From contig DAONFW010000001.1 of assembly GCA_035403785.1 (NCBI GenBank), forward strand, positions 21,595 through 85,594: a DNA stretch of 64,000 bases, given 5' to 3'. The position numbers were made by a program, and so were the translations under genes. The stretch is from Minisyncoccota bacterium (lineage in GTDB: Bacteria > Patescibacteriota > Minisyncoccia > Phycocordibacterales > UBA9973). Positions 1 to 38,737 of the stretch are shown here, piece by piece. Within the stretch, counting starts at the first letter, position 1, and every line of letters begins with the position of its first letter. The notes under the pieces were generated by a model, which searched no databases, was not told the DNA's origin, and was given only the letters and a program-made list of their open reading frames with translations.

Positions 1-58
1 TGGGGGGAGCCGGCAAAAAATGGAAAGGAAAATTTTTGGTTTTGGTTCCGACGCTTCA
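1..58. repeat. Left copy (truncated by window edge) of long inverted repeat X1; reverse complement of 4792..4850
   Basis: Read directly from the sequence: 1..58 equals the reverse complement of about 4792..4850 (ggaaccaaaaccaaaaattttcctttccattttttgccggctcccccc). The partner copy continues to 4995, so this copy presumably extends beyond the left window edge. Confidence 0.8.
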
Positions 59-399: not shown

Positions 400-1737
400 T
401 CATTTAATCTTTAAGAACAAATCGGTAATACCTTTGAGTAAATTTTCATCCGGCACTAAATCTTTAAGCTCTTTTGCAAATGACAAGAAACTTTCCGTTT
501 CTTTTTCATTACTAGCATTCAATAATTCTATTTTTTCTTTCTCTTTCTTTACCTTTTTCCAATCAATAGATTTCTCGTAAGGTTCAGTATAAAGTTTCTC
601 AATGGTTTTCCTTATGAAGGTCGTAGTCTCACCGTCTGACCCCTTTTCTTTAATTTTTTGAATTAGGAAATCTGCGTGGTTGCGCATGACTTCGGCTACA
701 GTTGCCTTGAATGAATATTTTTCCTCTAAATCCCGCTCAGTACCATATCGTCTAATTGCAAAAGTAATCAAAAAGAGTAGTGGCGAAGTAAGCGTTAAGC
801 GATAGAACAGAGATTCCCATTTAGGAATTTCACCTCCATTATGCAAAAGAATTTCCTTTACATCAAAAATAAAATAGAGAAGGATAGAAAGAGCAACAAT
901 ACCCAACGAGAAAATCGCTAACCAAATATAGCTATTCCTGCGTAGTAATTTAGCCCTATTTTGAAACGAATTAGCAAAACCCGTGTCTGTAATGAGGTCT
1001 GCTATTTTTTCAACCTCGGATCGTTTTTCTGTCGCGATATCAAGATTCTTTTGTATGTCATCTCGCAGTTGTTCTGATTTTTTCTTATTCCCTTCGATCT
1101 CAGAAAGGTGTTTCTGTGATTGATCACGAAAAGACTGAATTTCTGTAGCAACAGCAGTTGCTTTTTTCTGCAAATCTTGAACTTGCGCAAGAACTGCTCC
1201 CAAGCCGGTATTCTGGTCAGTAATTTTTGCATTAACCGCGACAAATTCATTGTAGGCATTTTGAATTTGTGTGATTTTTTCTTGAACTTGCCCCAGTAAT
1301 TCATTAATTTTCCCTAACTGTTGCGTCGCGGTTGTTTTGGCTGTTTCAATATCTGTTCGCAGGTTATTAGCTGTCAGAACAAGTGACTCTATTTCTCCCT
1401 CTCTACCCTCGATTTTTCCTTTTATGTTTTCAAATTTACGCAAACCTTCATCAATCTGAGTAATACTGGATTGTGCTTTTTCAAGATTGCTTTTTATTTC
1501 TGCAACAAAAGTTGCGGAATCATTCTTTGCGTTCTCAATAGTCCCAAGTCGCTCCCGGGCATCGTTTGAGATTTTTTCGATCTCATTCTGTTTTGGTACA
1601 AGGGTTGCTTGTGTAGCTTCAAATTTAATTTGAAGTGCTGAAATTTTCTCCAAAATATCTTTGGCTTTGTTGTATTGGCTCTTGATGTTCCTTAATTCTT
1701 CAGGACTCAAGTTAAAATTGTCGTTTTCGTCTGGCAT
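400..1737 (-). CDS. Hypothetical coiled-coil protein with two central TM helices (possible 2TM effector or abortive-infection-like protein); island 1 cargo
   Basis: 445-aa ORF. The N-terminal ~270 aa are E/K/Q-rich heptad-like sequence. Two hydrophobic helices follow (IWLAIFSLGIVALSILLYFIF; LTLTSPLLFLITFAI), then a ~120-aa charged tail. No recognisable enzyme motif. The gene is divergent from the LexA-like gene. Confidence 0.6.
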   Translation of the reverse strand: MPDENDNFNLSPEELRNIKSQYNKAKDILEKISALQIKFEATQATLVPKQNEIEKISNDARERLGTIENAKNDSATFVAEIKSNLEKAQSSITQIDEGLRKFENIKGKIEGREGEIESLVLTANNLRTDIETAKTTATQQLGKINELLGQVQEKITQIQNAYNEFVAVNAKITDQNTGLGAVLAQVQDLQKKATAVATEIQSFRDQSQKHLSEIEGNKKKSEQLRDDIQKNLDIATEKRSEVEKIADLITDTGFANSFQNRAKLLRRNSYIWLAIFSLGIVALSILLYFIFDVKEILLHNGGEIPKWESLFYRLTLTSPLLFLITFAIRRYGTERDLEEKYSFKATVAEVMRNHADFLIQKIKEKGSDGETTTFIRKTIEKLYTEPYEKSIDWKKVKKEKEKIELLNASNEKETESFLSFAKELKDLVPDENLLKGITDLFLKIK

Positions 1738-1797: not shown

Positions 1798-2424
1798 ATG
1801 AAAAAGAAGTCAAGCGTTGGAATAGGTAAACCGACAAAGCGGGAAGCTGAAATCCTACAATTCGCACGAGAGTATCGTCAAGAAAATGGATTCTCCCCCT
1901 CACTGGTTGAGATTGCTAAACATTTTAAGCGTTCCGTGCCCACAATTCATCAACATGTCTATTCTTTGCGAAGCAAGAACCTTCTTTTGATAGATAAGGG
2001 CAAAAAGCGTTCAATCAATGCTTTACATAATCACAGGGTTTCGGAAGTAATGATACCTCTAATGGGAATTATTTCTGCCGGTGGTCCAATTGAGGCCATC
2101 CGCGATCCAAAACCAGTAGAAGTTCCGCGAAGTATGCTTTCCCCCGGACATGACTACTACGCACTAAAGGTTTCCGGGCTGAGCATGATTGAGGAAGGAA
2201 TATCAGATGGAGACGTTGTGATTGTAAGAGATCAACCAACAGTAGATGACGGAGAAAAAGCAGTCGCGTATATGCCAGATAGAAACGAAGTAACGCTCAA
2301 AAAAATATACAGAGAAAAAGGTCGGATAAAACTTGTTCCAGCAAATCAAACCATGAAGCCGTTTTATGAATCAAACGTGGTCATTCAAGGAAAGGTCGTA
2401 GGAGTATTAAGAAAAGAATTTTAA
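1798..2424 (+). CDS. lexA: LexA-like repressor (N-terminal winged HTH plus C-terminal S24 peptidase with an Ala-Gly self-cleavage site)
   Basis: HTH region LVEIAKHFKRSVPTIHQHV. Cleavage-site-like ISAGGP. Ser nucleophile in GLSM and Lys in TLKKI. Length of 208 aa is typical. Confidence 0.75.
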   Translation: MKKKSSVGIGKPTKREAEILQFAREYRQENGFSPSLVEIAKHFKRSVPTIHQHVYSLRSKNLLLIDKGKKRSINALHNHRVSEVMIPLMGIISAGGPIEAIRDPKPVEVPRSMLSPGHDYYALKVSGLSMIEEGISDGDVVIVRDQPTVDDGEKAVAYMPDRNEVTLKKIYREKGRIKLVPANQTMKPFYESNVVIQGKVVGVLRKEF

Positions 2425-2433
2425 AATAAACTT

Positions 2434-4008
2434 ATGTCATTAGTAACAATACACGAAGCATCAAAATGGGCGACGGACTATCTTGAAAAAGAGGTATCGC
2501 CAACAAATATTTCTTACCTTGTTCAATATGGTAAGGTTAAGAAACTTGGAGAAAATGGGTCAACCCTTGTTGATTTGAATGATTTGAAAAAGTATTACGA
2601 ATCATGGAAAGGTAAACGAGAGATTGATTGGAAAAAACAACTTGGTGATGATTTAAACTGGGCGTTGTCTTTTGATAATCTCAGGGAAAAAGATACGACG
2701 AAGCATGTTCATAGATTACATCCATACAAAGGAAAATATATTCCGCAACTTGTTGAATATTTTATTGATTCCCACATTGATGATTTTAAAAAAGAAGTTT
2801 ATTTTAAAACCGGTGATATAGTCCTCGATCCTTTTCTGGGTTCAGGAACAACAATTATTCAATCACTAGAAATGGGTATCCATTCCGTGGGTATTGATGT
2901 GTCTGAGTTTAATTGCATGATTGCGAGTTGCAAGGCAACAAACTATGATCACGACTATTTGCAGAAAGCAATTAAAAAAATGCTCTCCGCAATAGATACT
3001 TTTGAGCATGATAATAGAATCCAAGAATTTGAAACAGAGTTGTTGGCAGAATTGGCAAAGTTTAATAACAAACATTTTCCCGGCTCAGATTTCAAATATA
3101 AAATAAATCAGGGAAATTTTGATGAAAAAAAGTTTTCTTCAGAAAAAGAAAGGGAGTTTTTGCCTACATATCAGAAATTACTCAAAAAATATTCAATAAA
3201 ACTGAAACAAGACAAAACTGAGTCATTTTTAGATACTTGGTTTATGGATAATGTGAGAAAAGAAATTGATCATGTTTTTAACACTATAAAACAAGAGAAG
3301 GATACAAAAACAAAAAAGATTCTCGCTCTAATTTTGAGCCGAACAATTAGATCGTGTCGAGCTACAACACACAGCGATCTTGCTACCCTAAAAGAACCTC
3401 AACTAACAACATATTATTGCTATAAGCACAAAAAGATTTGCAAACCGTTGTTTTCTATAAAAACAATGCTTAATCGTTACGCTTACGATACTGTTTCAAG
3501 GATCAAGGAATTTGAAAGGTTGCGAAAACCAGTTCATTATTCTGCTATTGCTGGTGATTCAAGAGTTGTGGATATTTTTGAAAAAGTTGAAAAGCAAAAC
3601 CCAGAGTTCGCAAAAATTCTTAAAAAACAAAAAATTTCAGGTATTTTCTGCTCGCCTCCATATGTTGGACAGATTGATTATCACGAACAACACGCCTACG
3701 CCTATGACTTGTTAGGATTTAAGAGAAAAGATGATCTAGAAATTGGCCCACTTTACAAAGGACAAGGACAAGAGGCACGCAGATCATACGCACAAGGAAT
3801 AGCCGATGTGCTAAATAACTGTAAGAAATATCTAAAAGATGATTACGATATTTTCCTTGTGGCAAACGATAAATATAATCTTTATCCAGAAATTGCTGAA
3901 AAATCTGGAATGAAGATTGTTAATCAATTTAAAAGACCTGTTTTGAATCGAACAGAACGGGACAGGAATCCATATTCCGAAATAATTTTTCATTTTAAAT
4001 CAATATAA
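2434..4008 (+). CDS. Type II DNA methyltransferase, amino-MTase (N6-adenine or N4-cytosine), alpha-class motif order
   Basis: Motif I DPFLGSGTT at about aa 135. Motif IV SPPY (IFCSPPYVGQIDY) at about aa 410, with a long intervening target-recognition region. Confidence 0.75.
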   Translation: MSLVTIHEASKWATDYLEKEVSPTNISYLVQYGKVKKLGENGSTLVDLNDLKKYYESWKGKREIDWKKQLGDDLNWALSFDNLREKDTTKHVHRLHPYKGKYIPQLVEYFIDSHIDDFKKEVYFKTGDIVLDPFLGSGTTIIQSLEMGIHSVGIDVSEFNCMIASCKATNYDHDYLQKAIKKMLSAIDTFEHDNRIQEFETELLAELAKFNNKHFPGSDFKYKINQGNFDEKKFSSEKEREFLPTYQKLLKKYSIKLKQDKTESFLDTWFMDNVRKEIDHVFNTIKQEKDTKTKKILALILSRTIRSCRATTHSDLATLKEPQLTTYYCYKHKKICKPLFSIKTMLNRYAYDTVSRIKEFERLRKPVHYSAIAGDSRVVDIFEKVEKQNPEFAKILKKQKISGIFCSPPYVGQIDYHEQHAYAYDLLGFKRKDDLEIGPLYKGQGQEARRSYAQGIADVLNNCKKYLKDDYDIFLVANDKYNLYPEIAEKSGMKIVNQFKRPVLNRTERDRNPYSEIIFHFKSI

Positions 4009-4012
4009 TTTT

Positions 4013-4795
4013 ATGGCACTATCAAAAGAACAAGTTAAAAATGTCGAGGATGTACTAAAAGCAAGTCTCAGAAACAAATTCCAAAATTACAAACCGGAAC
4101 CGGCTTCGATGCCATTCCATACTCGTCTTTTGGGTAAGGATAGATTGGCACTTTATTCATTTATCCATTCTCTCAATACTAATTTTGGAACAAGTATTTT
4201 TGAACCGGTCGGCTTAGCTTTGGCGCAAAAGAATTTCAAAATGGCTACATGCCAAGCTACTGCCGGAGATCGTATAAGCACCGGCGCACAAGCAGAAATA
4301 CAAAAAATTATTGATGGACTAACGACGGCAACATCATCACCAAACAAAAAAGAGGAAATTGAACGAATAAGAAAAGTTTGTCAGTCTGGTGAGATGATAA
4401 AAGCAAAACCTACCAAAGTAGATTTAATGTTTGAATCAAAAGACGGCGGTTATTATTTATTTGATATAAAAACAGCAAAACCTAATGCTGGAGGATTTAA
4501 GGAATTTAAACGAACACTACTTGAATGGGTCGCTGTGACTTTGGCGAACAATCCAAAAGCCGATATAAACACATTTATCGCAATTCCATATAATCCTTAC
4601 GAACCAGAGCCTTACACACGATGGACAATGCGTGGAATGCTTGATTTGGATAATGAGCTTAAAGTAGCTGATGAATTTTGGGATTTTCTTGGTGGTAAAG
4701 GCACATACAAAGATTTACTAGATTGTTTTGAACGAGTTGGAATTGAACTTCGTGGCGAAATAGATGACTACTTTAAGCGCTTCAATAAAAAATAA
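4013..4795 (+). CDS. Putative cognate type II restriction endonuclease
   Basis: The start lies 4 bp after the MTase stop on the same strand. There is a possible D..D-x-K catalytic signature (KDGGYYLFDIK). No other homology is recognisable by eye. Confidence 0.45.
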   Translation: MALSKEQVKNVEDVLKASLRNKFQNYKPEPASMPFHTRLLGKDRLALYSFIHSLNTNFGTSIFEPVGLALAQKNFKMATCQATAGDRISTGAQAEIQKIIDGLTTATSSPNKKEEIERIRKVCQSGEMIKAKPTKVDLMFESKDGGYYLFDIKTAKPNAGGFKEFKRTLLEWVAVTLANNPKADINTFIAIPYNPYEPEPYTRWTMRGMLDLDNELKVADEFWDFLGGKGTYKDLLDCFERVGIELRGEIDDYFKRFNKK

Positions 4796-4995
4796 GCGTC
4801 GGAACCAAAACCAAAAATTTTCCTTTCCATTTTTTGCCGGCTCCCCCCACACCCCCCGCCGAAAGAGGAATTGTAAGGAAAATTTTGGTTTTGGGATCGC
4901 GACCGAAGGGAGCGTGCGAGGCGCAAGTATCATTCGTCAAAATCCTGCGGATTTTGTCCGAAATACATTCGAACTTCGTCCAATACACACCGCCA
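4792..4995. repeat. Inverted repeat X1, right copy, ending in the CCGCCA core at 4990..4995
   Basis: 4792..4850 matches the reverse complement of 1..58. The distal 50 bp (ggattttgtccgaaatacattcgaacttcgtccaatacacaccgcca) is conserved with the end of X2 at 36857..36906. Confidence 0.65.
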
Positions 4996-5109
4996 AAATT
5001 GGAAATCGGAATCGGAAGCCGAAATGGGGTCGGCGCGAAGCGCCGACACAAACGCATTCCCGCCAAAAATTCCCGAATCCAAAAGGTTTTTCCACGCTCC
5101 GCGTGGCTC
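4990..5109. repeat. Inverted repeat Y1, copy A (120 bp, GC-rich, with internal hairpins)
   Basis: Appears to be a perfect reverse-complement match to 6512..6631 when read by eye in chunks. It contains the hairpins gtcggcgc-gaa-gcgccgac and ccacgc-tcc-gcgtgg. Confidence 0.85.
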
Positions 5110-5131
5110 TCTCGTTTGCCAATACAATTTT

Positions 5132-6730
5132 ATGAATAATCAAACCAAAAAGTTTTTCATATATACTCGCAAGTCTACGGATGACAAAGACAGACAAGTC
5201 CGCAGTATTGCAGACCAACTTTCTGAATTGAAAGAATTAGCAAGGAAAGAAGATTTAGATGTTGTTGATGTCTTTGTCGAAAAGCAGACCGCCAAAATAC
5301 CAGGTCGCCCAGTGTTTGGTGAGATGTTGGAGCGAATGGAGAAAGGCGAAGCCACTGGTATTTTGGCGTGGCATCCCGATAGACTTGCTCGCAACTCGAT
5401 AGACGGAGGAAAAGTCATCTACCTCGTTGACACCGGTGTCATTTCAGAAATGAAATTCCCAACTTTTTGGTTTGATCCGACACCGCAAGGCAAGTTTATG
5501 CTTTCAATCGCTTTTTCGCAGTCCAAGTATTATGTGGACAATTTGAGCGAAAATATTAAGCGTGGACATAGAAACAAAGTGAAAGAAGGAATATGGCCTC
5601 AAATGTCGCCGCTAGGATATATAAACGAGGGCGGGAAAATTGTCGTTGATGAAAATATCGCACCTTTAATCAAGAAAACATTTGAGGCATATTCGTCTGG
5701 GTCTTTCACTTTGCGACAACTTCGCGACAAATTTAATGAACTTGGATTGAAGCGAAAAAGCGGAAAGGAACTTGCGGTGTCGAATTATCAAAAACTTTTG
5801 AAAAACCCAATTTACACAGGTTTGATGTTGTATAACGGCGAGATACACGAAGGTAAGCACGAACCGATTATTACAAAGAAACTTTTTGATTCCGTTCAAG
5901 AAGTGATGATGAGAAAATCTAAACCGAAGTCGCGAGGATTGAAACCATTTTTGTACAGAGGATTTTTCCGTTGCGGAGAATGTAGTTGCTTCATTACCAC
6001 CGAAACACAGAAGGGTCATAATTATTTGCGATGTACCAAACGGAAAAATCCTTGTTCACAAAAATATACTCGTGAGGAAACCATCACTTCTGAAATTCAA
6101 AAGGAAATCAAAAAAGTTTCTTTGCCAGACGATTGGGCTTCTTGGATGTTAGTGGAAAATAGAAAAGATATATTGAGTGAAGCCCAATTGTCTACGCTTT
6201 TTGCAGACAACACAAAAGCCGATATTTCTCTTTTGGATTCTAAAATTGAGAAGCTGATGAACGCATATTTAGAGAACGCACTTTCGCTAGACGAGTATCG
6301 AGATATGAAAAACAAACTTGTGAACGAAAAACAGCTTCTCAAAGAGAAATTATCGGCTTTTGAGAAAAAAGCGAATAATCGGTTCGAACTTACCGAAAAG
6401 TTTTTGAAATACAATGTGGAATTGGCAAACGAGTGTACAAATGAAGAAAAACTTCATTTGTACAAAAAAGTCGGTTCGAACTTTCAAATTAAGGATCGAA
6501 CCGTACTTTTTGAGCCACGCGGAGCGTGGAAAAACCTTTTGGATTCGGGAATTTTTGGCGGGAATGCGTTTGTGTCGGCGCTTCGCGCCGACCCCATTTC
6601 GGCTTCCGATTCCGATTTCCAATTTTGGCGGAGGCGGAGGGATTCGAACCCTCGATGCCCTTTCAGACATACAGACTTTCCAGGTCTGCGCACTAGACCG
6701 CTATGCGACGCCTCCAAAATTTCTTATTAA
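5132..6730 (+). CDS. Large serine recombinase (resolvase/invertase catalytic domain, recombinase domain and zinc ribbon)
   Basis: The ATG at 5132 aligns with the paralog start MDNINLQTKKIFLYARKSTDE. Catalytic Ser is in YTRKSTDD. The Cys cluster FRCGECSCFITT...LRCTKRKNPC is present. Homology to the paralog ends near aa 465 (GSNFQIKDRTVLFEP). The last ~70 codons are encoded by repeat Y1 copy B and antisense tRNA-Ser, so the functional end is probably earlier than the ORF stop. Confidence 0.85.
   Translation: MNNQTKKFFIYTRKSTDDKDRQVRSIADQLSELKELARKEDLDVVDVFVEKQTAKIPGRPVFGEMLERMEKGEATGILAWHPDRLARNSIDGGKVIYLVDTGVISEMKFPTFWFDPTPQGKFMLSIAFSQSKYYVDNLSENIKRGHRNKVKEGIWPQMSPLGYINEGGKIVVDENIAPLIKKTFEAYSSGSFTLRQLRDKFNELGLKRKSGKELAVSNYQKLLKNPIYTGLMLYNGEIHEGKHEPIITKKLFDSVQEVMMRKSKPKSRGLKPFLYRGFFRCGECSCFITTETQKGHNYLRCTKRKNPCSQKYTREETITSEIQKEIKKVSLPDDWASWMLVENRKDILSEAQLSTLFADNTKADISLLDSKIEKLMNAYLENALSLDEYRDMKNKLVNEKQLLKEKLSAFEKKANNRFELTEKFLKYNVELANECTNEEKLHLYKKVGSNFQIKDRTVLFEPRGAWKNLLDSGIFGGNAFVSALRADPISASDSDFQFWRRRRDSNPRCPFRHTDFPGLRTRPLCDASKISY
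6512..6631. repeat. Inverted repeat Y1, copy B, overlapping the recombinase 3' end and abutting the tRNA-Ser 3' end
   Basis: Reverse complement of 4990..5109. Its last 6 nt (tggcgg) are the terminal CCGCCA of the tRNA. Confidence 0.85.
6626..6715 (-). tRNA. tRNA-Ser (anticodon GGA), class II with a long variable arm
   Basis: Reverse complement reads GGAGGCG-TC-GCAT...; anticodon stem-loop CAGAC-CTGGAAA-GTCTG; T arm GAGGGTTCGAATCCCTC; acceptor CGCCTCC-G-CCA. Length 90 nt. Confidence 0.85.
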
Positions 6731-9427: not shown

Positions 9428-9934
9428 TTAGTATGTTACTTTTAATTCACGTACAGCAACGCCAGAATTTGTATTACAATTATTGTACCCAGTAGAAATT
9501 ATAGTGGTTGTGTTGCTAGCAATATCTCTTATTAAAGTGACATCTGCACAGGCTTTCCCAGATTCACCCAAATTACGCACTTCAAAAGACCAAGATCCAC
9601 TTCCGATTAAACTTCCTATTGAACTAACCACAATATTTTGACCAGCACATTTCATCTGATGATCCAATGTACCAGAAAATACGTTTAGTGTTGGGTCTGA
9701 TTTGTCATAAAAAAGCGCGCATTCTGCTCCAGTATCTGCTGCAAAAAAAGCTTCGTTCCCAGCACGCGCAGAGACACTAAAGTTTGCTTCTTTTAAAGCA
9801 ATTCTCAAAATTCCCATCGCAATAGCCAAAATAATACTTGCCAAAATCATCGTATACAAAACCACGAAGCCATTATTCTTAATATTACTTATTTTGTTTC
9901 TTTTAAAAATTTTATTTTTCATTACTGTGTCCAA
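9428..9934 (-). CDS. Pilus-associated membrane-anchored protein (PilX-like); last gene of the minor pilin set
   Basis: N-terminal TM (VVLYTMILASIILAIAMGI). It overlaps the upstream minor pilin gene by 13 bp in the same operon. Confidence 0.4.
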   Translation of the reverse strand: MDTVMKNKIFKRNKISNIKNNGFVVLYTMILASIILAIAMGILRIALKEANFSVSARAGNEAFFAADTGAECALFYDKSDPTLNVFSGTLDHQMKCAGQNIVVSSIGSLIGSGSWSFEVRNLGESGKACADVTLIRDIASNTTTIISTGYNNCNTNSGVAVRELKVTY

Positions 9935-10503
9935 TTAAATAAACTTTCTGATAAAGAAACTTTTTTGCCATCTCCCCAAGAAACTGTTGATGTTATTTTT
10001 GTCTCACCATCAATTATTTTTTCTGTATGCAAAGAGCGTACAAAAATTGTTTCTTGATCTCCTGACCCAGCTGAATTATATTTACCAGTACTAGAATCGT
10101 ATTTAAGATTAGGGCACCCGTCAGTAGGACAAGTTTTTAAAAAAATGTAATTTATTGGCATAGATGGATTAGTAAAATCTAAATTTTCATCATTAAAAAA
10201 ACATTCTTTTCCGGGACCACAATAAGTGAACATTTTAGTATTAAAATCACTCCAACCATCATTAGCTGTAGTTGAATAAAGAACATAAGTATCTCTCATA
10301 TTTCTCATATACTCAATTCCTTCTTGCGCTAAAAATGTCGCAGTCATTTTTTTTCTTGCTTCCATTGTATTAGTTAAACCACTAGACAAAACAGCCATAA
10401 TTCCCAAAATAGATATAGAAAAAATAGAAAGCGCAACCAAAGTTTCAATCAAAGTAAAGCCTCTTTCGTTCTTTGTATTTTTTTGTTTTAAAAATTTTTT
10501 CAT
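9922..10503 (-). CDS. Type IV minor pilin / pseudopilin (prepilin N-terminus)
   Basis: The N-terminus RGFTLIETLVALSIFSI matches the class III signal G/FTLIE. Confidence 0.75.
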   Translation of the reverse strand: MKKFLKQKNTKNERGFTLIETLVALSIFSISILGIMAVLSSGLTNTMEARKKMTATFLAQEGIEYMRNMRDTYVLYSTTANDGWSDFNTKMFTYCGPGKECFFNDENLDFTNPSMPINYIFLKTCPTDGCPNLKYDSSTGKYNSAGSGDQETIFVRSLHTEKIIDGETKITSTVSWGDGKKVSLSESLFNWTQ

Positions 10504-10518
10504 TTTAAATTAAATTAA

Positions 10519-11253
10519 TTAACGCAAAGTTGCCGACTCTCTAGCCGATTGTTCTAATGTGCTTGCTTCTAGAGGCAAGACTGGTTCAGAAACTACAAAC
10601 TCTCCCGGCTCGGCCACTGGCGTAATTGGGGTTACTGGAATTATTGTCGGATTTGTTTCAATATCAATTAATCTTTGCGACACTGCAGTTTCAATAGAAA
10701 ATGGAATATCCCTTACACTTCCAACTAACCTGATAATTACCAACGGCTGCTGTTTATCATCAGATGGCGGCTCGGCTCCCAACACAGAAAAGCCCGAAGC
10801 TTGTTCACCCAACACAACCTCATCTGGCGTCATTTGAACAGCAAAGTTATCGACTCCCGAATAAGAAGGTCCTGTACTTTTATAAAGTTTGTTTTCACTT
10901 ATAAAATAAACCCATTGATCTTTTCCATTTCCTTTTGTACCAGTAGAGGATTCGAAGGAAATACCTAAGCCATCTTTGCAACTTTTTGTTTTTTCATCTT
11001 GAATAGAATAAAAATCAGTTCCTTCTGTAATACAAAAATATGACGATCCAACTCTGATATTTTTTGACATATCATCCAAAGCAAAAGTTAAACTATCATA
11101 AAGTGAACGCATGCTTTGAGATTTTTTTTGCACAAAGTTTGCATTTAACAAAGACTGCATTCCAAAAACAACAACCACCAAAAAAATAGCAATCGCAATC
11201 ATCATTTCTATGATAGTAAAACCTCTTATTTTTTTTACATTCTCTTTTTTCAT
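10519..11253 (-). CDS. Type IV minor pilin / pseudopilin
   Basis: N-terminus RGFTIIEMMIAIAIFLV. Confidence 0.75.
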   Translation of the reverse strand: MKKENVKKIRGFTIIEMMIAIAIFLVVVVFGMQSLLNANFVQKKSQSMRSLYDSLTFALDDMSKNIRVGSSYFCITEGTDFYSIQDEKTKSCKDGLGISFESSTGTKGNGKDQWVYFISENKLYKSTGPSYSGVDNFAVQMTPDEVVLGEQASGFSVLGAEPPSDDKQQPLVIIRLVGSVRDIPFSIETAVSQRLIDIETNPTIIPVTPITPVAEPGEFVVSEPVLPLEASTLEQSARESATLR

Positions 11254-11266
11254 TTATTATTTTATC

Positions 11267-11854
11267 TTATTTTATTTCAATTCTTCCTGTTGGATAAATA
11301 TCTATATGTGAAACTGCAGAATGATCAGCTGAGGAAACATAAATATCAACAAAAGAAAAACCGGAACAACTTCCATTCGAAGACGTAGAAACAAAAGCAG
11401 TAGAATCCGGACGTTCAAAGACAACATTTACATCATTTGTCTGACCAGAGCAACTCCCCCCGTTTATATTTATATCTTTAATAAAACTCTGTTTGGTTAT
11501 TTTTATGACATCTAACCCTTCTCCTGATTCATAGCTTTTATTATCATTAAAATCCGCAAAAGGAATAAATTGCTGGTTATCTGATAAACTAAAATAAACA
11601 CCGTAAGCTGGTTTATCGTCAAACGAACCGAGAGTTGATAATTTTCCAGCCATAGCGCTTTTCTGAGCATCCACAATTTGCAACGCTATATCGTTTGCTA
11701 GATTTTTTATTTCAACTTTTGCCTCAAATTTTCTATAGTCAAACAAACTAATTGCTGACATGATAGAAAAAATACTCAAAACTACAATGAGCTCAACATA
11801 AGTCATGCCCTTTCTGAATTTCGCTTTTTTAAATTTTTTAAAATTAAAACTCAT
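11267..11854 (-). CDS. Type IV minor pilin / pseudopilin
   Basis: N-terminus KGMTYVELIVVLSIFSI. Confidence 0.7.
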   Translation of the reverse strand: MSFNFKKFKKAKFRKGMTYVELIVVLSIFSIMSAISLFDYRKFEAKVEIKNLANDIALQIVDAQKSAMAGKLSTLGSFDDKPAYGVYFSLSDNQQFIPFADFNDNKSYESGEGLDVIKITKQSFIKDININGGSCSGQTNDVNVVFERPDSTAFVSTSSNGSCSGFSFVDIYVSSADHSAVSHIDIYPTGRIEIK

Positions 11855-11862
11855 TTTTTAAA

Positions 11863-12657
11863 TTAAAAATTCAAAGGAAAAAGATGCAATTCAAAAAGAA
11901 ATGCCAAAACTGAACCGAGTACTAGAAATGGCGCAAATGGAATTTCGCTTTTTGCAGTATATTTCTTTTTTGAAAAAATCATTAAAACAACACCAAAAAT
12001 TGCTCCAATCCAAAATGCTAGAACAACGCCACTCAAAGCTCTAGACAAACCAAGCATCCAGCCAATTCCAACCATTAATTTTGCATCTCCAAGCCCCATC
12101 CATTTTCCTTTTGAAACTAACCAAAAAATTGCGAACGGAGCAGCCACTATAATTCCTGACAAAAATTCCCAAACAGAAGGAATATGCGGATAAAAACCAA
12201 AACCAGCAAACAAGAATAATCCAATAAAAGATAAAATAGCCAAAACCAAAACCAAAGAATCTGGAATTATTTTATGACGCAAATCGTATACAGCGATTAC
12301 CATCAAAAGAGAAAACATCGTTGCATAAAAAGCCATCGTGATTGAAAAAGCGCCAGTACTCAAAAAAAATAAATTTTCAAATTTCAAAAACAAACCGGCA
12401 AAAAATAGTCCTGTTAGAAATTCAACAATCGGATACTGTTTGGAAATTCTAGTTTTACAGCCAGCGCATCTTCCCTTCAAATACAAAAAACTAAAAACCG
12501 GAATCAATTCATGCCAGTTTAATTTTTTGCCACAAGTCATACACTTACTCCTTCCCCCAAAAGACTTGTGTGTATTTAGTCTAAAGATTACAACATTCAA
12601 AAAACTTCCAATAATAAGACCAAAAATAAAGAAAAATATGGTGATAGCTAATGTCAT
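11863..12657 (-). CDS. pilD: Prepilin peptidase / N-methyltransferase PilD (A24 family)
   Basis: N-terminal TM, zinc-binding CMTCGKK...CAGCK tetracysteine, polytopic body, GxGDxKL motif (GLGDAKLM). Confidence 0.85.
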   Translation of the reverse strand: MTLAITIFFFIFGLIIGSFLNVVIFRLNTHKSFGGRSKCMTCGKKLNWHELIPVFSFLYLKGRCAGCKTRISKQYPIVEFLTGLFFAGLFLKFENLFFLSTGAFSITMAFYATMFSLLMVIAVYDLRHKIIPDSLVLVLAILSFIGLFLFAGFGFYPHIPSVWEFLSGIIVAAPFAIFWLVSKGKWMGLGDAKLMVGIGWMLGLSRALSGVVLAFWIGAIFGVVLMIFSKKKYTAKSEIPFAPFLVLGSVLAFLFELHLFPLNF

Positions 12658-12679
12658 AAATTATTTTGTTAAATTAATC

Positions 12680-12719
12680 CCGACGCTTTCAGGTCGGGAC
12701 TCCGACTTTACGTCGGGGT
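12680..12719 (-). promoter_or_regulatory. Tandem GC-rich hairpins in the pilD leader (cccgac-N8-gtcggg; ccgac-N5-gtcgg)
   Basis: Two adjacent stem-loops with near-identical stems, about 20 nt upstream of the pilD start codon, within a 70% AT context. Confidence 0.35.
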
Positions 12720-12850
12720 TAATAAACTCTATATATTATATCATCCCGTACGAAAATTACTATCAAGTATGCGGTAATAAAATTAATATAATTAACTGAG
12801 ACAAAAATACCAACTATAACCAAAATATATTTTTGTTCGGGATCACATAA

Positions 12851-12890
12851 GCCCAAAACAAAAACCACCCAATTTGATTGGATGGTTTTT
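12851..12890 (-). terminator. Rho-independent terminator downstream of pilA
   Basis: Hairpin ccacccaat-ttgat-tggatgg (one G-U pair). An A-run on the plus strand gives a T-run on the minus strand. It lies 20 bp past the pilA stop. Confidence 0.6.
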
Positions 12891-12910
12891 GAATAAGTTT
12901 TTTAATACAA

Positions 12911-13309
12911 TTAACAACTTTCACCAGTTTGAGACGTGAACTCTGCTCCACTAGGGGTAATAGTAACTGTACCACATTTTTCAGCAACCCCTGCATTAGC
13001 TGGTGAAGCCGTAAATGCCCAATCTCCACTTCCCGTAGCACCACAAATTTCAGGTTGACTTCCATCATGATTTGCTACCCAAGCTGCACCGGTCAAATTA
13101 TTTGTGTTTGCTGGCAATGTCAAAGCTCCATCATCACATTGAGAAATGAAACCTGGGGCAACTCCTGAAGCTTCTGCTTTAAATGCAGCAACTTGTGCCT
13201 TTCCTCTTGCACTATTAAGTGATGCCAAAACAACTGATGACAAAATTCCGATGATTGCGATAACAACCAACAATTCAATTAATGTAAAACCTTTTTTTGA
13301 ATTTTTCAT
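12911..13309 (-). CDS. pilA: Type IV major pilin PilA
   Basis: KKGFTLIELLVVIAIIGILSSVVLASL prepilin signature. Length 132 aa. C-terminal Cys pair. Confidence 0.9.
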   Translation of the reverse strand: MKNSKKGFTLIELLVVIAIIGILSSVVLASLNSARGKAQVAAFKAEASGVAPGFISQCDDGALTLPANTNNLTGAAWVANHDGSQPEICGATGSGDWAFTASPANAGVAEKCGTVTITPSGAEFTSQTGESC

Positions 13310-13445
13310 TTATTTTTTTCTCGTTAAACGAGATTTTTATTATTAATAATTTATAATTTTTATCTGCATATTTCTCGGCAGATATCGACTTATTTTTACT
13401 GTTTCTATTATATCATAGCTACAAATATAAACTGTGGAAATCTTT

Positions 13446-14651
13446 TTAAGCTATTCCACCAGCAATATTGTAAATAGGCATCAAGATAGAAACCAAAAGA
13501 ATACCAACGCCGACACCAAGGAAAATAATCATGAACGGCTCGATCAAACCAACCAAAGTGTCTACAGCGCCATCTACTTCTCTTTTATAGAAATCTCCCA
13601 TTGTTTTCAAAATAGAACCAAGAGAACCTGTTTCTTCTCCTACTTTTACCATCTGAGTCATCATATTTGGTATTTCTGGATGTTTTTCTAATGCAGCAGA
13701 AAAAGAAAGTCCCGACTTAACTCCTTCGGCTGTATCTTTCAAAACTCTTTGGAACACTTTGTTCCCTACAACTTCTCCTGTGATATCAATAGCGCGAACA
13801 ATCGGAATACCTGAAGTGAGCATTGTGTCCATGTTGTCAGCCATTCGAGACAAATAAAGTTTTTGGTACAAATCTCCAATTGCCGGCAAACTGAGTTTCA
13901 TTTTATCTAAATATTCTTTGCCTCTTTCTGTTGCAGAAAGTCTCCAAAGCCAAATTCCACCTAATGCCAAGAAAATTACAATGATAAATCCGTAATTCAT
14001 AAAGAAATTAGAAAGGCCGATTATCAGCTTAGTAAAGAACGGCACAGCTTGTCCTGACTCATTAATGATTGCGGACATTTTTGGTATAACCACAACGAAC
14101 ATTAAAATCATAACAGCGATAAAAGTGAAAATAACAAATATTGGATAGATCAAAGCATTTCTAGTTTTTGAAGTTAAGGCATACTGTCTGTCCAAATAAT
14201 CTGCTAAGTGATTAAAAGTTTGATTTAACTTTCCTGTCTCTTCTCCAGCTTTTACTAAGTTTACATAAAAATCAGAAAAAACGTCTGGGTGTTTTGACAA
14301 AGCACCAGAAATAGAAACTCCAGCCTGCAAATCATCGCTAATTTGAGTTAATTTTCTTTTTAAAATTTTATTTTCTGTATTTGCAGCAAGTAAAGTAAAA
14401 GCCTTTAATGCAGACACTTGCGCTTCGAACAAAGTAGCAATCTGCCTAGACAAAACTACAACATCTTTCGTTTTTACTTTTCCAAATAAAGATTTTTTAA
14501 ATATCGGCGTTTTTTCTCCTTCTTCTTTTATTCCAACAACAATCAAGCCTCTTCCCTGCAGACCACTTATCGCAACGTCTCTACTTGGAGCGTCTATTTG
14601 TCCCTCTCTATTTATTCCTTTTTCATCTACTGCTTTATATTTGAATAACAT
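13446..14651 (-). CDS. pilC: Type IV pilus platform protein PilC (GspF family)
   Basis: Two T2SS-F repeats in a 401-aa polytopic protein. Confidence 0.85.
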   Translation of the reverse strand: MLFKYKAVDEKGINREGQIDAPSRDVAISGLQGRGLIVVGIKEEGEKTPIFKKSLFGKVKTKDVVVLSRQIATLFEAQVSALKAFTLLAANTENKILKRKLTQISDDLQAGVSISGALSKHPDVFSDFYVNLVKAGEETGKLNQTFNHLADYLDRQYALTSKTRNALIYPIFVIFTFIAVMILMFVVVIPKMSAIINESGQAVPFFTKLIIGLSNFFMNYGFIIVIFLALGGIWLWRLSATERGKEYLDKMKLSLPAIGDLYQKLYLSRMADNMDTMLTSGIPIVRAIDITGEVVGNKVFQRVLKDTAEGVKSGLSFSAALEKHPEIPNMMTQMVKVGEETGSLGSILKTMGDFYKREVDGAVDTLVGLIEPFMIIFLGVGVGILLVSILMPIYNIAGGIA

Positions 14652-14657
14652 ATTTTT

Positions 14658-15716
14658 TTACATCATTCTTTCTAATCCTTTTGGATTGAGAGAATACTGA
14701 TAAGCGCTTTCAATAGTAATTTCCCCTGCTCTAACTAACTCCATGAGAGATCTGTTCAAGTCTATCATTCCAGATTCTGTACCAGTTTCTATCACTACAT
14801 CAATTTCATGAGTCCTTTTTTCACGAATCAAGTTTGCTACAGCATTATTATTTAGTAGAAGCTCATATGCTGGAATAAGGCCACCCCCAATTTTTGGAAC
14901 AAGTCTTTGTGAAAAAATTCCCAGCAAACTGGATGCCAACTGAACTCTAATTTGGTCTTGCTGTTCACCCGGAAAAGAATCGATAATTCTGTCGATTGTT
15001 TGAGAAGCATTATTTGTATGCAAAGTTGAAAGCACTAAGTGTCCAGTTTCAGCCGCAGTAACCGCAGCGGAAATTGTTTCTGGATTTCGCATTTCACCGA
15101 TCATGATTACGTTCATGTCTTCACGAAAAGCCGATTTGAGCGCAACGTGAAAATCTTTTGTATCTATTCCAACTTCTCTTTGGTCAATTATAGATTTCTT
15201 CGGTTCATAAACGTGCTCAATAGGATCTTCTATAGTAACAATATGTCTTGTCTGTTCTTCGTTTATCAAATTTATCATTGAAGACAAGGTAGTAGATTTT
15301 CCTTGTCCTACTGGACCTACGCACAAAAAGAATCCTTGCTTCTTCCTAGCCAAATCAGCAATAATGTTTGGTAAATGCAATTCAGATAGTGGCCTTACTT
15401 TTGGCACCAATCTCAAAGCAATACTAATCAAACCTTTTTGGAAAAAAGCATTTCCTCTCAATCTTGCTTCTCCTCTAAAATCATAAGAAAAATCTAATTC
15501 TTGGTCTTCTAAAAATTTATTTAACTTTTTCTCATCTAAAATTTCTTTCAAAATACCCAACATGTCTTCTTTTGAAAAGATTGGATGCTTTACCAAAAAA
15601 ATAAGTTCACCCGAAACACGAATAGCTGGATTTCTCCCAGCACCGATATGCAAATCAGACCCACCTTCCCTGATGACTGTTAAAATTAATTCTTCGAGTT
15701 CTTTTTTGTAGTCCAT
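14658..15716 (-). CDS. pilT: Twitching motility / retraction ATPase PilT
   Basis: Walker A GPVGQGKSTT. Length 352 aa. No N-terminal GspII domain. Confidence 0.85.
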   Translation of the reverse strand: MDYKKELEELILTVIREGGSDLHIGAGRNPAIRVSGELIFLVKHPIFSKEDMLGILKEILDEKKLNKFLEDQELDFSYDFRGEARLRGNAFFQKGLISIALRLVPKVRPLSELHLPNIIADLARKKQGFFLCVGPVGQGKSTTLSSMINLINEEQTRHIVTIEDPIEHVYEPKKSIIDQREVGIDTKDFHVALKSAFREDMNVIMIGEMRNPETISAAVTAAETGHLVLSTLHTNNASQTIDRIIDSFPGEQQDQIRVQLASSLLGIFSQRLVPKIGGGLIPAYELLLNNNAVANLIREKRTHEIDVVIETGTESGMIDLNRSLMELVRAGEITIESAYQYSLNPKGLERMM

Positions 15717-15795
15717 CCCGTTAGAAATTTATATTAATTAATAATTACTAAACTAGTATACCCCCGTTTTCAATCTTTTTGTTATTTCTAACGGG
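15717..15795 (-). promoter_or_regulatory. 12-bp long-range inverted repeat in the pilT leader (cccgttagaaat ... atttctaacggg) that includes the bases immediately 5' of the start codon
   Basis: Seen in sequence. The arm at 15717..15728 directly abuts the pilT ATG (minus strand). The arm at 15784..15795 lies 57 nt upstream. Confidence 0.4.
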
Positions 15796-15805
15796 ATACA
15801 TTTTT

Positions 15806-16198: not shown

Positions 16199-16245
16199 AT
16201 TTTTATTATACTACTTAAAAAAACCTTTGTTAATTAGTAAAAATA

Positions 16246-18000: not shown

Positions 18001-18002
18001 AA

Positions 18003-18530: not shown

Positions 18531-18531
18531 A

Positions 18532-34176: not shown

Positions 34177-34267
34177 ATTTAAAATTTAAAATATCTAATA
34201 GTTAGATAAACTAAATATTATCATAAAGTTATTTTTTGTGCAAATAGAATAATTATTGAATTTAAAA

Positions 34268-34462
34268 ATCTGGCGGTGTTTTTTGGACGAAGTTCGAACG
34301 TTTTTTGACGAAAATCCTGAAAACTAATTTGGACTCGGCGGGGCAAACTATTTTTCTGGGGGAATGGAATTGCCCCGCCTCGGCTTTCTTCCCGCCCGCA
34401 GGAGGGGTCTGGGGAGGAATGCGGGCGGGTTTTTGAACCTTTCCTTTTTCGCTTCCGAATTT
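34268..34462. repeat. Inverted repeat X2, left copy (about 195 bp, GC-rich), starting with a tggcgg core
   Basis: Perfect reverse complement of 36712..36906 read by eye. The sequence at 34463..34480 differs from its partner, but each version is itself an 18-bp palindrome. Confidence 0.85.
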
Positions 34463-34493
34463 CGTGCCAGTTGAAAACTGGCGCGCCACCTAT

Positions 34494-35477: not shown

Positions 35478-35478
35478 A

Positions 35479-36327: not shown

Positions 36328-36331
36328 AGTT

Positions 36332-36526: not shown

Positions 36527-36556
36527 ATTAAAATAGTAATATTAAATTGTGGTATA

Positions 36557-36711: not shown

Positions 36712-36906
36712 ACGAAATTCGGAAGCGAAAAAGGAAAGGTTCAAAAACCCGCCCGCATTCCTCCCCAGACCCCTCCTGCGGGCGGGAAGAAAGCCGAGGC
36801 GGGGCAATTCCATTCCCCCAGAAAAATAGTTTGCCCCGCCGAGTCCAAATTAGTTTTCAGGATTTTCGTCAAAAAACGTTCGAACTTCGTCCAAAAAACA
36901 CCGCCA
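36712..36906. repeat. Inverted repeat X2, right copy, ending in the CCGCCA core (36901..36906)
   Basis: Reverse complement of 34268..34462. Confidence 0.85.
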
Positions 36907-37034
36907 AGTTTTACATTCAGCGAAATTGAAAGATGTTGCCTCGGCGCAAAGCGCCTCGGCATGGTATTTTTCCGCAATTTTGAAGGCATTTTTGAAATCC
37001 AAAACCAAAGTGCGGTCGGCAATGCGGAAGTTCG
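36901..37034. repeat. Inverted repeat Y2, copy A (about 133 bp)
   Basis: Perfect reverse complement of 38518..38650 read by eye. It contains the ggcgc-aaa-gcgcc hairpin. Confidence 0.85.
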
Positions 37035-37148
37035 CCGTGCAAAGCACGGGCAAAATGAAATTTTGCAAACCAATCTTTTTTCTTTCGCTTTCGGCGAAAG
37101 GTTGAGCGTATTTTTCTTTGATTGCCCAAAAACTAATTTCAAAACAAT

Positions 37149-38702
37149 ATGGACAACATAAATTTACAAACCAAAAAGATTTTTCTCTATGCCCGTAAAT
37201 CCACGGACGAACCCGAAAGGCAGGTTTTGAGTATTGAGGCGCAAATGTTTGAATTGCGGGAATTTGCGAAAAAAGAAGGACTAAATATCGTCCGTGAATT
37301 TGTGGAAAGCAAAACCGCCAAAGAGCCGGGGCGTGAGATTTTTAACGAAATGATCACAAGCATAGAGAAAAATGAAGCAGAGGGAATTTTAGCGTGGCAC
37401 CCCGACCGCCTCGCTCGAAATAGCATAGACGGCGGACGAATAATCTATTTCGTAGATACTGGCAAAATTACCACGCTAAAATTTCCAACTTTTTGGTTTG
37501 ATCCGACACCGCAGGGAAAATTTATGTTGAGTATCGCTTTTGGGCAATCAAAATATTATGTGGATAATCTTTCGGAAAATATAAAGAGGGGTATTCGCCA
37601 GAAATTGCGAAATGGAATATGGCCCGCTTGGGCGCCACTTGGGTATGTGAACGACAAGAACGCCCGCTGTATTGCCGTGGACAAGGAAAAGGCAAAGTAT
37701 ATCAAGCGGGCTTTTGAAATGTACGCGACTGGCGAATACCCCCTCGCTCAAATCCGAAAGATTATCAATTCCTTGGGCTTGGTTGGCAAGAAAGGCAAAA
37801 TGCTTTCCGTCTCAAATTATCAGTATATGCTGAAAAATAAAATCTATTACGGAATGATTGAATATAACGGCGAATTGTATGACGGAAAGCACGAACCGAT
37901 TATCACAAAGAGACTTTTTGATTTATGCCAAGAAGTGATGATGAATAAGTCAAAACCGAAAACACCAAAACTCAAGCCATACATTTTTAGAGGATTTTTC
38001 CGTTGTGGGGAGTGCGGTTGTTTCATTACCACCGAAACGCAAAAAGGTCATAACTATTTGCGATGTACGAAACGGAAAAATCCTTGTTCGCAAAGGTATG
38101 TAAGAGAGGACGCCATCACTTCTCAAATTAAAGAGGAAATCAAAAAAGTTTCTTTGTCTTCCGCTTGGGCAAACGCTTCAATCAATTATTTTGAAAATGA
38201 AAAAATGAAACTTGCCCAAGCGGAAAGCTCTTTCGCCCAAGAAGCGAGAAATGAGCTTGTAGAGATAGAAACAAAACTTGATCGTTTGCTTGATTTACAA
38301 CTGGACGGCAGTTTGTCGCAAGCAGAATATACCGCTAAAAAGCACAAGCTCATTCTCGCCAAAAAGGATTTGGAAGAAAAAATCACTGCTTTTGGGCGAA
38401 AGAGCAATAATCGGTTCGAACTTACCATTGCCTTTCTAAAAGACGCCAACCAAGCCGAAAAATACGCTCAACAAGAAAATCCCGAAAGGATTCGGGATTT
38501 TCTCAAAAAGATTGGTTCGAACTTCCGCATTGCCGACCGCACTTTGGTTTTGGATTTCAAAAATGCCTTCAAAATTGCGGAAAAATACCATGCCGAGGCG
38601 CTTTGCGCCGAGGCAACATCTTTCAATTTCGCTGAATGTAAAACTTGGCGGAGACGGCGGGATTCGAACCCGCGATGGGTTTTGAAGCCCATGCCTCTTT
38701 AG
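37149..38702 (+). CDS. Large serine recombinase (paralog of 5132..6730)
   Basis: YARKSTDEPERQ catalytic motif. Zinc ribbon FRCGECGCFITT...LRCTKRKNPCSQ. The C-terminal tail is encoded by repeat Y2 copy B and then antisense tRNA-Ser, giving WRRRRDSNPR as in the paralog. Confidence 0.85.
   Translation: MDNINLQTKKIFLYARKSTDEPERQVLSIEAQMFELREFAKKEGLNIVREFVESKTAKEPGREIFNEMITSIEKNEAEGILAWHPDRLARNSIDGGRIIYFVDTGKITTLKFPTFWFDPTPQGKFMLSIAFGQSKYYVDNLSENIKRGIRQKLRNGIWPAWAPLGYVNDKNARCIAVDKEKAKYIKRAFEMYATGEYPLAQIRKIINSLGLVGKKGKMLSVSNYQYMLKNKIYYGMIEYNGELYDGKHEPIITKRLFDLCQEVMMNKSKPKTPKLKPYIFRGFFRCGECGCFITTETQKGHNYLRCTKRKNPCSQRYVREDAITSQIKEEIKKVSLSSAWANASINYFENEKMKLAQAESSFAQEARNELVEIETKLDRLLDLQLDGSLSQAEYTAKKHKLILAKKDLEEKITAFGRKSNNRFELTIAFLKDANQAEKYAQQENPERIRDFLKKIGSNFRIADRTLVLDFKNAFKIAEKYHAEALCAEATSFNFAECKTWRRRRDSNPRWVLKPMPL
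38518..38650. repeat. Inverted repeat Y2, copy B, abutting the tRNA-Ser 3' end
   Basis: Reverse complement of 36901..37034. Confidence 0.85.
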
Positions 38703-38737
38703 CAAAGAGGTACGTTAGACCACTCTGACACGTCTCC
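38646..38737 (-). tRNA. tRNA-Ser (anticodon GCU), class II
   Basis: Reverse complement reads GGAGACG...; anticodon loop CCTCT-TTGCTAA-AGAGG; long variable arm; GGTTCGAATCC T-loop; CCA is encoded. Confidence 0.85.

Follow-up and report, generated by a model that had tools for sequence, protein, structure and literature searches.

In a 64,000-nucleotide stretch of a Candidatus Paceibacterota chromosome (contig DAONFW010000001.1, positions 21,595 to 85,594; this whole stretch is called the window here), two recombinase genes continue without a stop codon into the antisense strand of a tRNA-Ser gene, raising the question of where these proteins end and why both enter the tRNA in the same reading frame. 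The genes belong to two small integrative islands with restriction-modification cargo that sit at the extreme 3' ends of tRNA-Ser genes, element 1 (~6.8 kb, right end at 6631) at tRNA-Ser(GGA) and element 2 (4.4 kb, 34271-38651) at tRNA-Ser(GCU). We conclude that the read-through is a by-product of integration by an integrase with an attachment site in its own gene. Very probably, the islands encode large serine recombinases (LSRs) whose element attachment site (attP) lies inside their own open reading frame (ORF), so that integration at a tRNA 3' end swaps the native C-terminal tail for one encoded by the antisense tRNA.

Recombinase genes that run on into tRNA genes

The two genes and the tRNA genes that they enter are the following (attL and attR, left and right junctions of the element; attB, host attachment site with arms B and B'; P and P', arms of attP):
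5132..6730, plus strand: LSR of element 1 in its integrated form, 532 amino acids, with the antisense tRNA as its last 33 codons (Pfam Resolvase, Recombinase and Zn_ribbon_recom)
6626..6715, minus strand: intact tRNA-Ser(GGA), B' arm of the element 1 attR (ARAGORN; Rfam tRNA, 57 bits)
37149..38702, plus strand: LSR of element 2 in its integrated form, 517 amino acids, with the antisense tRNA as its last 17 codons (ORF, Pfam)
38646..38737, minus strand: intact tRNA-Ser(GCT), B' arm of the element 2 attR (ARAGORN)

The ORF of element 1 is open from 5024, with a likely start at the ATG at 5132, and stop-free until 6730. A first-pass annotation of this DNA had noted that both ORFs traverse a repeat and the antisense tRNA-Ser in one frame, with no in-frame stop before 6730 or 38702, and the ORFs together with the tRNA genes found by ARAGORN bear this out. 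Both ORFs enter the tRNA antisense at TGG CGG (6626-6631 and 38646-38651), reading W-R-R-R-R-D-S-N-P-R, and independent assemblies of the same organism carry identical sequence through the repeat and the tRNA. By domains and fold the proteins are LSRs: the resolvase-type catalytic domain (PF00239, E values of 6e-20 and 2e-19) has an invariant Y-x-R-K-S-T-D in the homologue alignments, the Recombinase domain (PF07508) and zinc ribbon (PF13408) are present, AlphaFold2 predicts helices at 338-385 and 391-441 for the inserted coiled coil, and Foldseek matched solved LSR-DNA complexes at E values of 3e-15 to 1e-9 (9y66, 9dxh, 4kis and 9iu2).

The repeat just before the tRNA, referred to as Y, is one of two inverted repeat pairs in each element, and the second pair, X, brackets the cargo. 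Their copies are arranged as follows:
1..56, plus strand: element 1, inner end of the X copy on the attL side, which is recombinase 3' flank; a 100% inverted repeat with 4794-4849
4794..4989, minus strand: element 1, inverted internal copy of X, the sequence that follows the core in attP, with the native tail CVLDEVRMYFGQNPQDFDE and stop at 4930-4989
4990..5109, minus strand: element 1, inverted copy of Y1, the last 40 codons up to and including the core (CCGCCA at 4990-4995); 120 nt, 100% complementary to 6512-6631
6512..6631, plus strand: element 1, Y1, recombinase 3' coding part and attR P arm, with core TGGCGG at 6626-6631
34265..34465, plus strand: element 2, attL and X copy, with B arm ...aaaaatc, core TGGCGG at 34271-34276, tail at 34277-34327 and ~140 nt of GC-rich 3' flank
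36712..37034, minus strand: element 2, internal inverted attP and gene 3' end, with inverted X at 36712-36900 (tail and stop at 36850-36900), core CCGCCA at 36901-36906 and inverted Y2 at 36901-37034
38518..38651, plus strand: element 2, Y2, recombinase 3' coding part and attR P arm, with core TGGCGG at 38646-38651

The Y copies had been taken for direct repeats with sequences unrelated between the elements, lying beyond the end of protein homology at about residue 465. They are in fact inverted and perfect, at 120 nt (4990-5109/6512-6631) and 134 nt (36901-37034/38518-38651), each 100% identical, and BLASTP aligns the two recombinases at 56% identity across 515 amino acids, Y included, with a single 7-residue gap that falls in Y. 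Y1 and Y2 are diverged but homologous coding sequence, and their length difference of 21 nt amounts to whole codons inside it. Since the core occupies a homologous codon in both paralogues and tRNA-Ser 3' ends are nearly identical, the shared frame requires no special mechanism. The X pair of element 2 (34265-34465/36712-36912) spans 201 nt at 99% identity, while that of element 1 (1-56/4794-4849, 100%) is clipped by the start of the window; judging from a homologous locus (L067), attL and the rest of X should lie ~147 nt to its left. Perfect repeats of 120-201 nt exclude a chance origin, as does the finding of this layout in more than 60 independent assemblies.

Two minus-strand ORFs at 4930..5127 and 36850..37068, earlier dismissed as spurious, turned out to be inverted duplicates of the recombinase gene 3' ends. 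On the minus strand of these copies, the ~60 last recombinase codons are followed by a tail and a stop, and the tails resemble each other in element 1 (WRCVLDEVRMYFGQNPQDFDE and stop) and element 2 (WRCFLDEVRTFFDENPEN and stop). In element 1, the inverted X and Y1 copies together form an intact internal attP and gene 3' end. In element 2, the same tail also stands directly after the core at attL, where the displaced native end CFLDEVRTFFDENPEN and its stop occupy 34277-34327. The full order in element 2 is host MarR gene, B arm and core, X, cargo, inverted X-core-Y, 114 nt of unique sequence, recombinase gene, Y and core, and tRNA-Ser(gct), and element 1 has the same order.

Attachment sites in the coding sequence and a probable exchange of the tail

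To define the sites, we extracted the attL, internal attP and attR junctions from 20 independent loci with both repeat pairs and from element 2 of the window. At attL, GCGG and then TGTTTTTTGGACGAAGTTCGAAC... come after a variable host arm, in which there is often a hairpin of terminator type, as one would expect downstream of a tRNA; in the internal copy, Y...TTGGCGG leads into the same X sequence as at attL, and in attR, Y...TTGGCGG leads into AGAGGGAGGGATTCGAACC..., the tRNA acceptor stem and T arm read in antisense. The junctions share 4-6 bp. GCGG is all that is common to the three of them, extended to TGGCGG where the tRNA gene encodes CCA, and in tRNA-Gln elements the common sequence is TTG. 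Within the tRNA, the core reaches from the final two bases of the acceptor stem across the discriminator base into the CCA, so that the tRNA stays whole and Y supplies the sequence downstream of it.

Past the core, the sequence TTCGAAC occurs at a distance of 16 nt in X (the P' arm) and 11 nt in the tRNA (the B' arm) in 18 of the 20 loci and in element 2; the other two loci, L039 and L062, had an offset anchor and an unconfirmed spacing. In serine integrases, as described for the Listeria integrase, the zinc-ribbon motif lies 5 bp further inward in attB than in attP half-sites (PMC3783163). On sequence grounds, the 16- versus 11-nt spacing is this 5-bp motif shift, as far as the P'/B' pair goes. 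The crossover dinucleotide is probably the last GG of the core, in which case the motif would end at half-site positions 24 (P') and 19 (B'), like in the Listeria system. As a consequence of the shift, the motif is read in two ways, as xTT-CGA-ACx (Arg-Thr) in the native tail and as GAT-TCG-AAC (Asp-Ser-Asn) in the tRNA-encoded tail.

In the mechanism that we propose, the attP core GCGG (usually TGGCGG) is read as Trp-Arg, 15-20 codons ahead of the natural stop. Recombination between attP and attB, the ...CC-G-CCA end of the tRNA, would keep the tRNA intact and part the gene body with the P arm (Y, at attR) from the P' arm (X, at attL), and with X would go the conserved last helix and the stop codon. 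Separated from X, the ORF would therefore run on into the antisense acceptor stem and T arm as RR(G/R)RDSNPR.... Excision would yield a circle with the full-length gene restored. If conservative (attL × attR), it would therefore leave two identical inverted attP on the circle, Y-core-X in the gene and the inverted X-core-Y upstream of it, and between these the recombinase would lie on one segment of the circle and the cargo on the other. The tail swap may also alter the activity of the enzyme.

The native end of the family is RCFLDEVRTFFxxNP, 15-20 amino acids in length. Searching with a rebuilt full-length protein (body, Y and RCFLDEVRTFFDENPEN) yielded at least ~8000 homologues (E ≤ 1e-20), and we classified the C termini after the conserved Trp among the best 120 of them. 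The native tail was found in 22 of these 120, ending 15-20 amino acids after the Trp and with Arg508 and Pro515 invariant, and at least 61 had tRNA-antisense tails, which end 8-89 amino acids after the Trp and have only the tRNA-forced part in common. The two classes are interleaved, such that P0046 (native) and P0057 (tRNA) are 99.6% identical across a 496-residue body, so they represent different states of the same elements rather than distinct lineages; this near-identical pair came from different samples and so gives no case of both states in one sample. In 20 divergent elements, the entropy of the native tail at codon positions 1, 2 and 3 was 0.62, 0.39 and 1.00, a coding pattern of variation, and its Asn-Pro codons wobble freely ~40 nt from the core, beyond any plausible protein-binding half-site. 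With an alignment of native-tail proteins, AlphaFold2 predicted the tail as a helix (residues 498-513; predicted local distance difference test [pLDDT] of 80-93) that closes a small domain at the C terminus, composed of one helix, a beta-hairpin and two further helices. Given how widely its length varies, the tRNA-encoded tail is a by-product and not a designed extension.

For the C terminus, the first-pass annotation had offered two options: either the extension is functional and the integration target decides where the stop falls, or the gene truly ends earlier. From the first option, it holds that the targeted tRNA sets the position of the stop. It is highly unlikely, however, that the extension is a selected functional C terminus: even though its first 8-9 residues (RRxRDSNPR) recur in most homologues, the conserved acceptor stem and T arm dictate them, the later parts are unrelated at lengths of 8-89 amino acids, with a stop within 1-7 codons in some contigs, and it is a different tail that is conserved, one of narrow length range whose variation follows a coding pattern. 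Still less credible is an end near residue 465, where a sequencing error, frameshift or unseen stop would make the read-through an annotation artefact. The fall in paralogue similarity after GSNF speaks for it, but the independent assemblies agree through Y and tRNA, the Y-encoded region is present in every full-length homologue with either tail, so that homologues extend past the repeat instead of ending before it, and the folded C-terminal domain predicted by AlphaFold2 lies there.

Orientation, rival explanations and a possible role of the tail swap

Just upstream of the recombinase gene, each element keeps an intact inverted copy of attP and the gene 3' end (inverted X, core, inverted Y). 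Candidate roles for this spare copy are a reserve 3' end accessible via inversion, an operator for autoregulation, or a partner for pairing of the 5' and 3' ends of the mRNA. Within subfamilies that are up to 40% apart in protein, the repeat boundaries do not change (120, 134, 139 or ~198 nt), while the repeat sequences themselves diverged between subfamilies, indicating concerted evolution of the two copies. We considered a separate mini-protein expressed from the inverted copy and judged it unlikely, since only 4 nt separate its earliest potential start codon in element 1 from the recombinase ATG, leaving no space for expression signals.

The cargo occurs in both orientations beside the same host flank with an identical flanking MarR protein: in L226 (positions 1-1068; JGI 3300025867), MarR-attL-X is joined to the controller-protein end of the cargo, whereas in the window (34265-36919) and in L223 it is joined to the methylase end. 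The same was observed for another element (L088 versus L089). Misassembly across the 200-nt repeat is a less likely account of this cargo inversion. The recombinase segment has the orientation of the window in nearly all surveyed loci and in the four assemblies of this host, so that flipping of the gene was not seen in this host in any of the four. The opposite arrangement (tRNA, inverted Y, native-tail gene, X, cargo) was found in four loci, L001, L093, L132 and, on a 543-kb contig, L151; the Y copies of all four are at most 86% identical or of different types. Additionally, many contigs of 1.8-2.9 kb contain a native-tail gene and begin 89-126 nt inside the inverted Y; this is the kind of contig that assemblers give at unresolved repeats and does not settle which forms exist.

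These arrangements bear on two further explanations. One could regard the system mainly as a DNA invertase that flips its own gene through the Y repeats and the cargo through the X repeats in a form of phase variation, with the tRNA being incidental. Inverted repeats do bracket both segments, and the two cargo orientations and the rare native-tail genes in opposite orientation would fit. We nevertheless consider this improbable, because the junction triads correspond to attP × attB products with variable host B arms at many tRNAs and in many genomes, the element DNA is 90-94% identical across distant lineages of the candidate phyla radiation (CPR), which implies mobility, and the gene orientation does not differ among the four assemblies. 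LSRs are, moreover, not known to recombine attP with attP or attR (PMC3783163), and the inversion could be RecA mediated; it may be an additional property of an integrative element. There is also very little to recommend the idea that the recombinase gene between its Y repeats is an insertion sequence-like transposon with terminal inverted repeats of 120-134 bp that lands beside tRNA genes. Many contigs of 1.8-2.3 kb consist of this unit alone, and L022 has it between two inverted copies of a tRNA-Ser gene. However, the short contigs are explained by assembly breaks in the repeats, with ends 89-126 nt into the inverted Y, and the left neighbor of the unit is the inverted X rather than host DNA, with X recurring beyond the cargo next to host sequence.

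In L022 (9661-11596), the recombinase gene with its Y repeats is located between two inverted copies of tRNA-Ser(gga) (226 nt, 92%), a layout that would be the expected product of recombination between the internal attP and a second tRNA gene, i.e., a chromosomal inversion.

Several observations weigh against integration through an attP within the ORF. The P and B arms contain no clear motif, and inspection of the P arm by eye at the register seen in P' gave only a weak YGAA. Unusually for an LSR, there is no conservation in the B half of attB. No empty attB was found for this host, and integration is deduced from the anatomy of the sites: an exact-pattern metagenome scan for the empty attB of element 2 gave 0 matches, and contigs with identical flanking MarR/LigA were occupied, broken inside the repeats, or from strains with other neighbors and no tRNA. 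A demonstrably circular excised form was likewise not found, and the drop in AlphaFold2 confidence described below for the tail-swapped protein is confounded by the alignment.

If integration does exchange the tail, the swap could act as a latch: integration would strip the last helix and thereby inactivate the integrase, or alter its direction with no need of a separate recombination directionality factor (RDF), and a simple inversion, or excision to the circle, would rebuild the full-length enzyme. We regard this combination of tail-swap control, restoration through the spare copy and wide occurrence as a tentative proposal with the odds rather against it. Indirect support comes from the constancy of the native tail in sequence and length as opposed to arbitrary substitutes, from the overwhelming majority of tail-swapped copies in chromosomes, and from the decayed or mismatched repeats at all four opposite-orientation loci. 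An unoccupied tRNA-Ser (38810-38897), 160 bp from element 2, has also stayed unrecombined with either internal attP. In the AlphaFold2 model of the tail-swapped window protein, residues 445-517 have a pLDDT of 27-36, compared to 80-94 in the native-tail model, and overall confidence is 57.9 versus 74.9, a comparison confounded by the different alignments used. If true, the latch would control the mobility of defence islands widely among CPR bacteria and Elusimicrobia, in what would be the first large, coherent serine-integrase family aimed at tRNA genes.

The unoccupied gene is a tRNA-Ser with anticodon ACT on the plus strand (ARAGORN; Rfam tRNA, 57 bits), divergent from tRNA-Ser(GCT), and its 3' end contains a good B'-type half-site (GCGG, 11 nt, TTCGAAC). 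A tRNA-Ser(ACT)/(GCT) pair is also present in L056, and a serine tRNA with A34 is unusual.

Distribution, related systems and cargo

To assess how widespread the arrangement is, we scanned one genome per GTDB species and found relatives encoded in at least 574 stretches, mostly from Patescibacteria (CPR) and Elusimicrobiota. From these we fetched 80 loci, of which 75 could be assessed downstream and 51 upstream of the gene. The ORF abuts an antisense tRNA in 69 of the 75 (58 Ser, covering all anticodons, 5 Gln, 4 Glu and 2 Asp), and an inverted Y copy precedes the gene in all 51, at ≥99% identity in 27, 95-99% in 10 and <95% in 14. Where 10 kb of upstream sequence was available, the two X copies were usually 2-7 kb apart around the cargo, which elsewhere includes other restriction or defence genes. 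In a separate metagenome scan anchored on the gene end and core (~120 contigs), 90-94 contigs continued into a tRNA and 9-13 into X-type tails, the remainder being other or cut off; in some, the stop follows 1-7 codons on. Ten tRNA-type cases apparently lacked the inverted Y copy, and the five that we examined were all truncated 3' gene remnants beside a tRNA. These remnants (L211, L184, L170, L163 and L120) comprise 60-375 recombinase codons still fused to the neighboring tRNA-Ser genes and are fossil attR scars of decayed elements. A phage origin was rejected, with only 7 weak or partial matches in IMG/VR viral contigs.

Among canonical LSRs, the integrases of Listeria A118/LI, SPbeta, Bxb1 and phiC31 have the same domain order, fold matches, short attachment sites and the 5-bp motif shift, although sequence similarity of the window proteins to solved LSRs is confined to the catalytic domain. 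LSRs cross over at a central dinucleotide of 2 bp, act on attP × attB only and need an RDF for the reverse reaction. In contrast to these systems, the target here is a tRNA 3' end, attP lies inside the ORF, a second, inverted attP is present, only the B' half of attB is conserved, and no RDF candidate was identified. According to the Islander paper, targeting of tRNA 3' ends by serine integrases was not known; the TIGER paper found 14 of 297 candidate cases and called for experimental proof. The islands that Islander describes, which use tyrosine integrases, have the same small cargo, a tRNA-proximal integrase gene and an intact tRNA, but require a displaced tRNA fragment and a tyrosine integrase, whereas our elements have only the GCGG core at attL, no long direct repeat and a serine recombinase. 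Serine invertases such as Hin and Gin are small, with a C-terminal helix-turn-helix (HTH), short sites and an enhancer, in contrast to LSRs of 517-532 amino acids with repeats of 120-430 nt.

The closest parallels for an attachment site within the integrase gene are tyrosine integrases. For Myxococcus phage Mx8, a passage in PMC6070905 (citing Tojo 1996 and Magrini 1999) states that attP lies in the int coding sequence and that integration gives a new 3' end and altered integrase properties. Mx8 IntP/IntX thus shares the attP-in-gene design, but it is a tyrosine recombinase of a phage and lacks the inverted spare 3' end. In the "suicidal" tyrosine integrases of the SSV type, which belong to archaeal mobile elements, the site is also inside the ORF, integration splits the gene, and hybrid genes arise (PMC7253208). 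Their split yields two inactive pseudogenes, while the exchange here affects no more than the last 15-20 residues and keeps the ORF open; hybrids occur in both, and here the elements keep an intact internal copy of the lost part. With a core read as Trp-Arg and the native tail displaced to attL, the window elements do have the site in the ORF, whereas fold and chemistry are not those of a tyrosine recombinase, so that the system works like the Mx8 and SSV-type integrases without being a member of their class. A full-text literature search retrieved no report of such a design for a serine integrase, within a partial journal coverage that leaves room for an earlier description.

The yeast 2-micron plasmid carries its Flp sites within long inverted repeats. 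By analogy, the circle proposed here would have two long perfect inverted repeats with sites, two unique segments and possibly flip isomers, even though enzyme family and biology differ.

These findings explain an annotation puzzle, namely the long "recombinase family" ORFs that overlap tRNA genes in the surveyed GTDB species representatives. The family comprises thousands of database proteins, and most of the deposited sequences carry a meaningless C terminus. The survey documents a large, coherent serine-integrase family that targets tRNA 3' ends, extends the design of an attachment site inside the integrase gene from tyrosine (Mx8 and SSV type) to serine recombinases, and adds to it the inverted spare attP and gene end. 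The elements transport restriction-modification and other defence genes from one distant CPR lineage to another, with 90-94% identity of their DNA, and are therefore candidate vehicles of gene flow in organisms for which few mobile elements are known. Since the recognized half-site is a near-universal tRNA T-arm sequence, it could also interest integrase engineers.

The cargo of the two window elements comprises the following genes:
400-1737, minus strand: element 1, unknown protein of 445 amino acids (ORF)
1798-2424, plus strand: element 1, LexA-like S24 repressor (Pfam)
2434-4008, plus strand: element 1, N6/N4 DNA methylase (Pfam)
4013-4795, plus strand: element 1, TdeIII-type restriction endonuclease (Pfam)
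34494-35477, minus strand: element 2, C5 DNA methylase (Pfam)
35479-36327, minus strand: element 2, NgoPII-type restriction endonuclease (Pfam)
36332-36526, minus strand: element 2, HTH controller protein (Pfam)

The elements have a G+C content of 38.4%, compared to 33.9% in the host, with X and Y being highest (47-56%). The assignment of the host to Candidatus Paceibacterota is based on its LigA protein. Regarding a structured RNA in the X flank, Rfam gave no match besides the tRNAs, and the predicted folds were not clearly better than those of shuffled sequence (z of -1.85 and -0.89). A promoter scan of 36500-38800 returned weak consensus matches only and did not locate the recombinase promoter. 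Both recombinase genes contain repeats of the palindrome-containing motif CGGTTCGAACTT (6374-6391, 6466-6483, 38410-38423 and 38511-38524), which is read as NRFEL and GSNF and contains the half-site motif TTCGAAC. Hybrid recombinases, whose N- and C-terminal halves come from the two types resembling the element 1 and the element 2 enzyme, were seen in L001 (7776-9539), P0043, P0061 and P0062 and could stem from recombination between elements or from chimeric assembly.

In L056 (1-11600; JBAXFJ010000001.1), three recombinase elements are arranged in tandem at one tRNA-Ser(gct) and separated by identical 191-nt spacers (1897-2087 = 5472-5662). Each spacer has a 15-nt tRNA 3' fragment at its start and the host B arm at its end; the array would have formed without a regenerated attB.

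Elsewhere in the window, a tRNA-Ile with anticodon TAT is encoded at 43627-43701 (minus strand), and an ORF of 728 amino acids at 22353-24539 (minus strand) is made up of approximately seven tandem repeats of ~200 nt (families D1-D5). A cluster resembling type IV pilus and type II secretion systems (T2SSE ATPases, T2SSF, prepilin peptidase and N-methyl pilins) adjoins ligA at 9428-19131 (minus strand) and in L221 (445-9547), and may be relevant to DNA uptake by this CPR bacterium.

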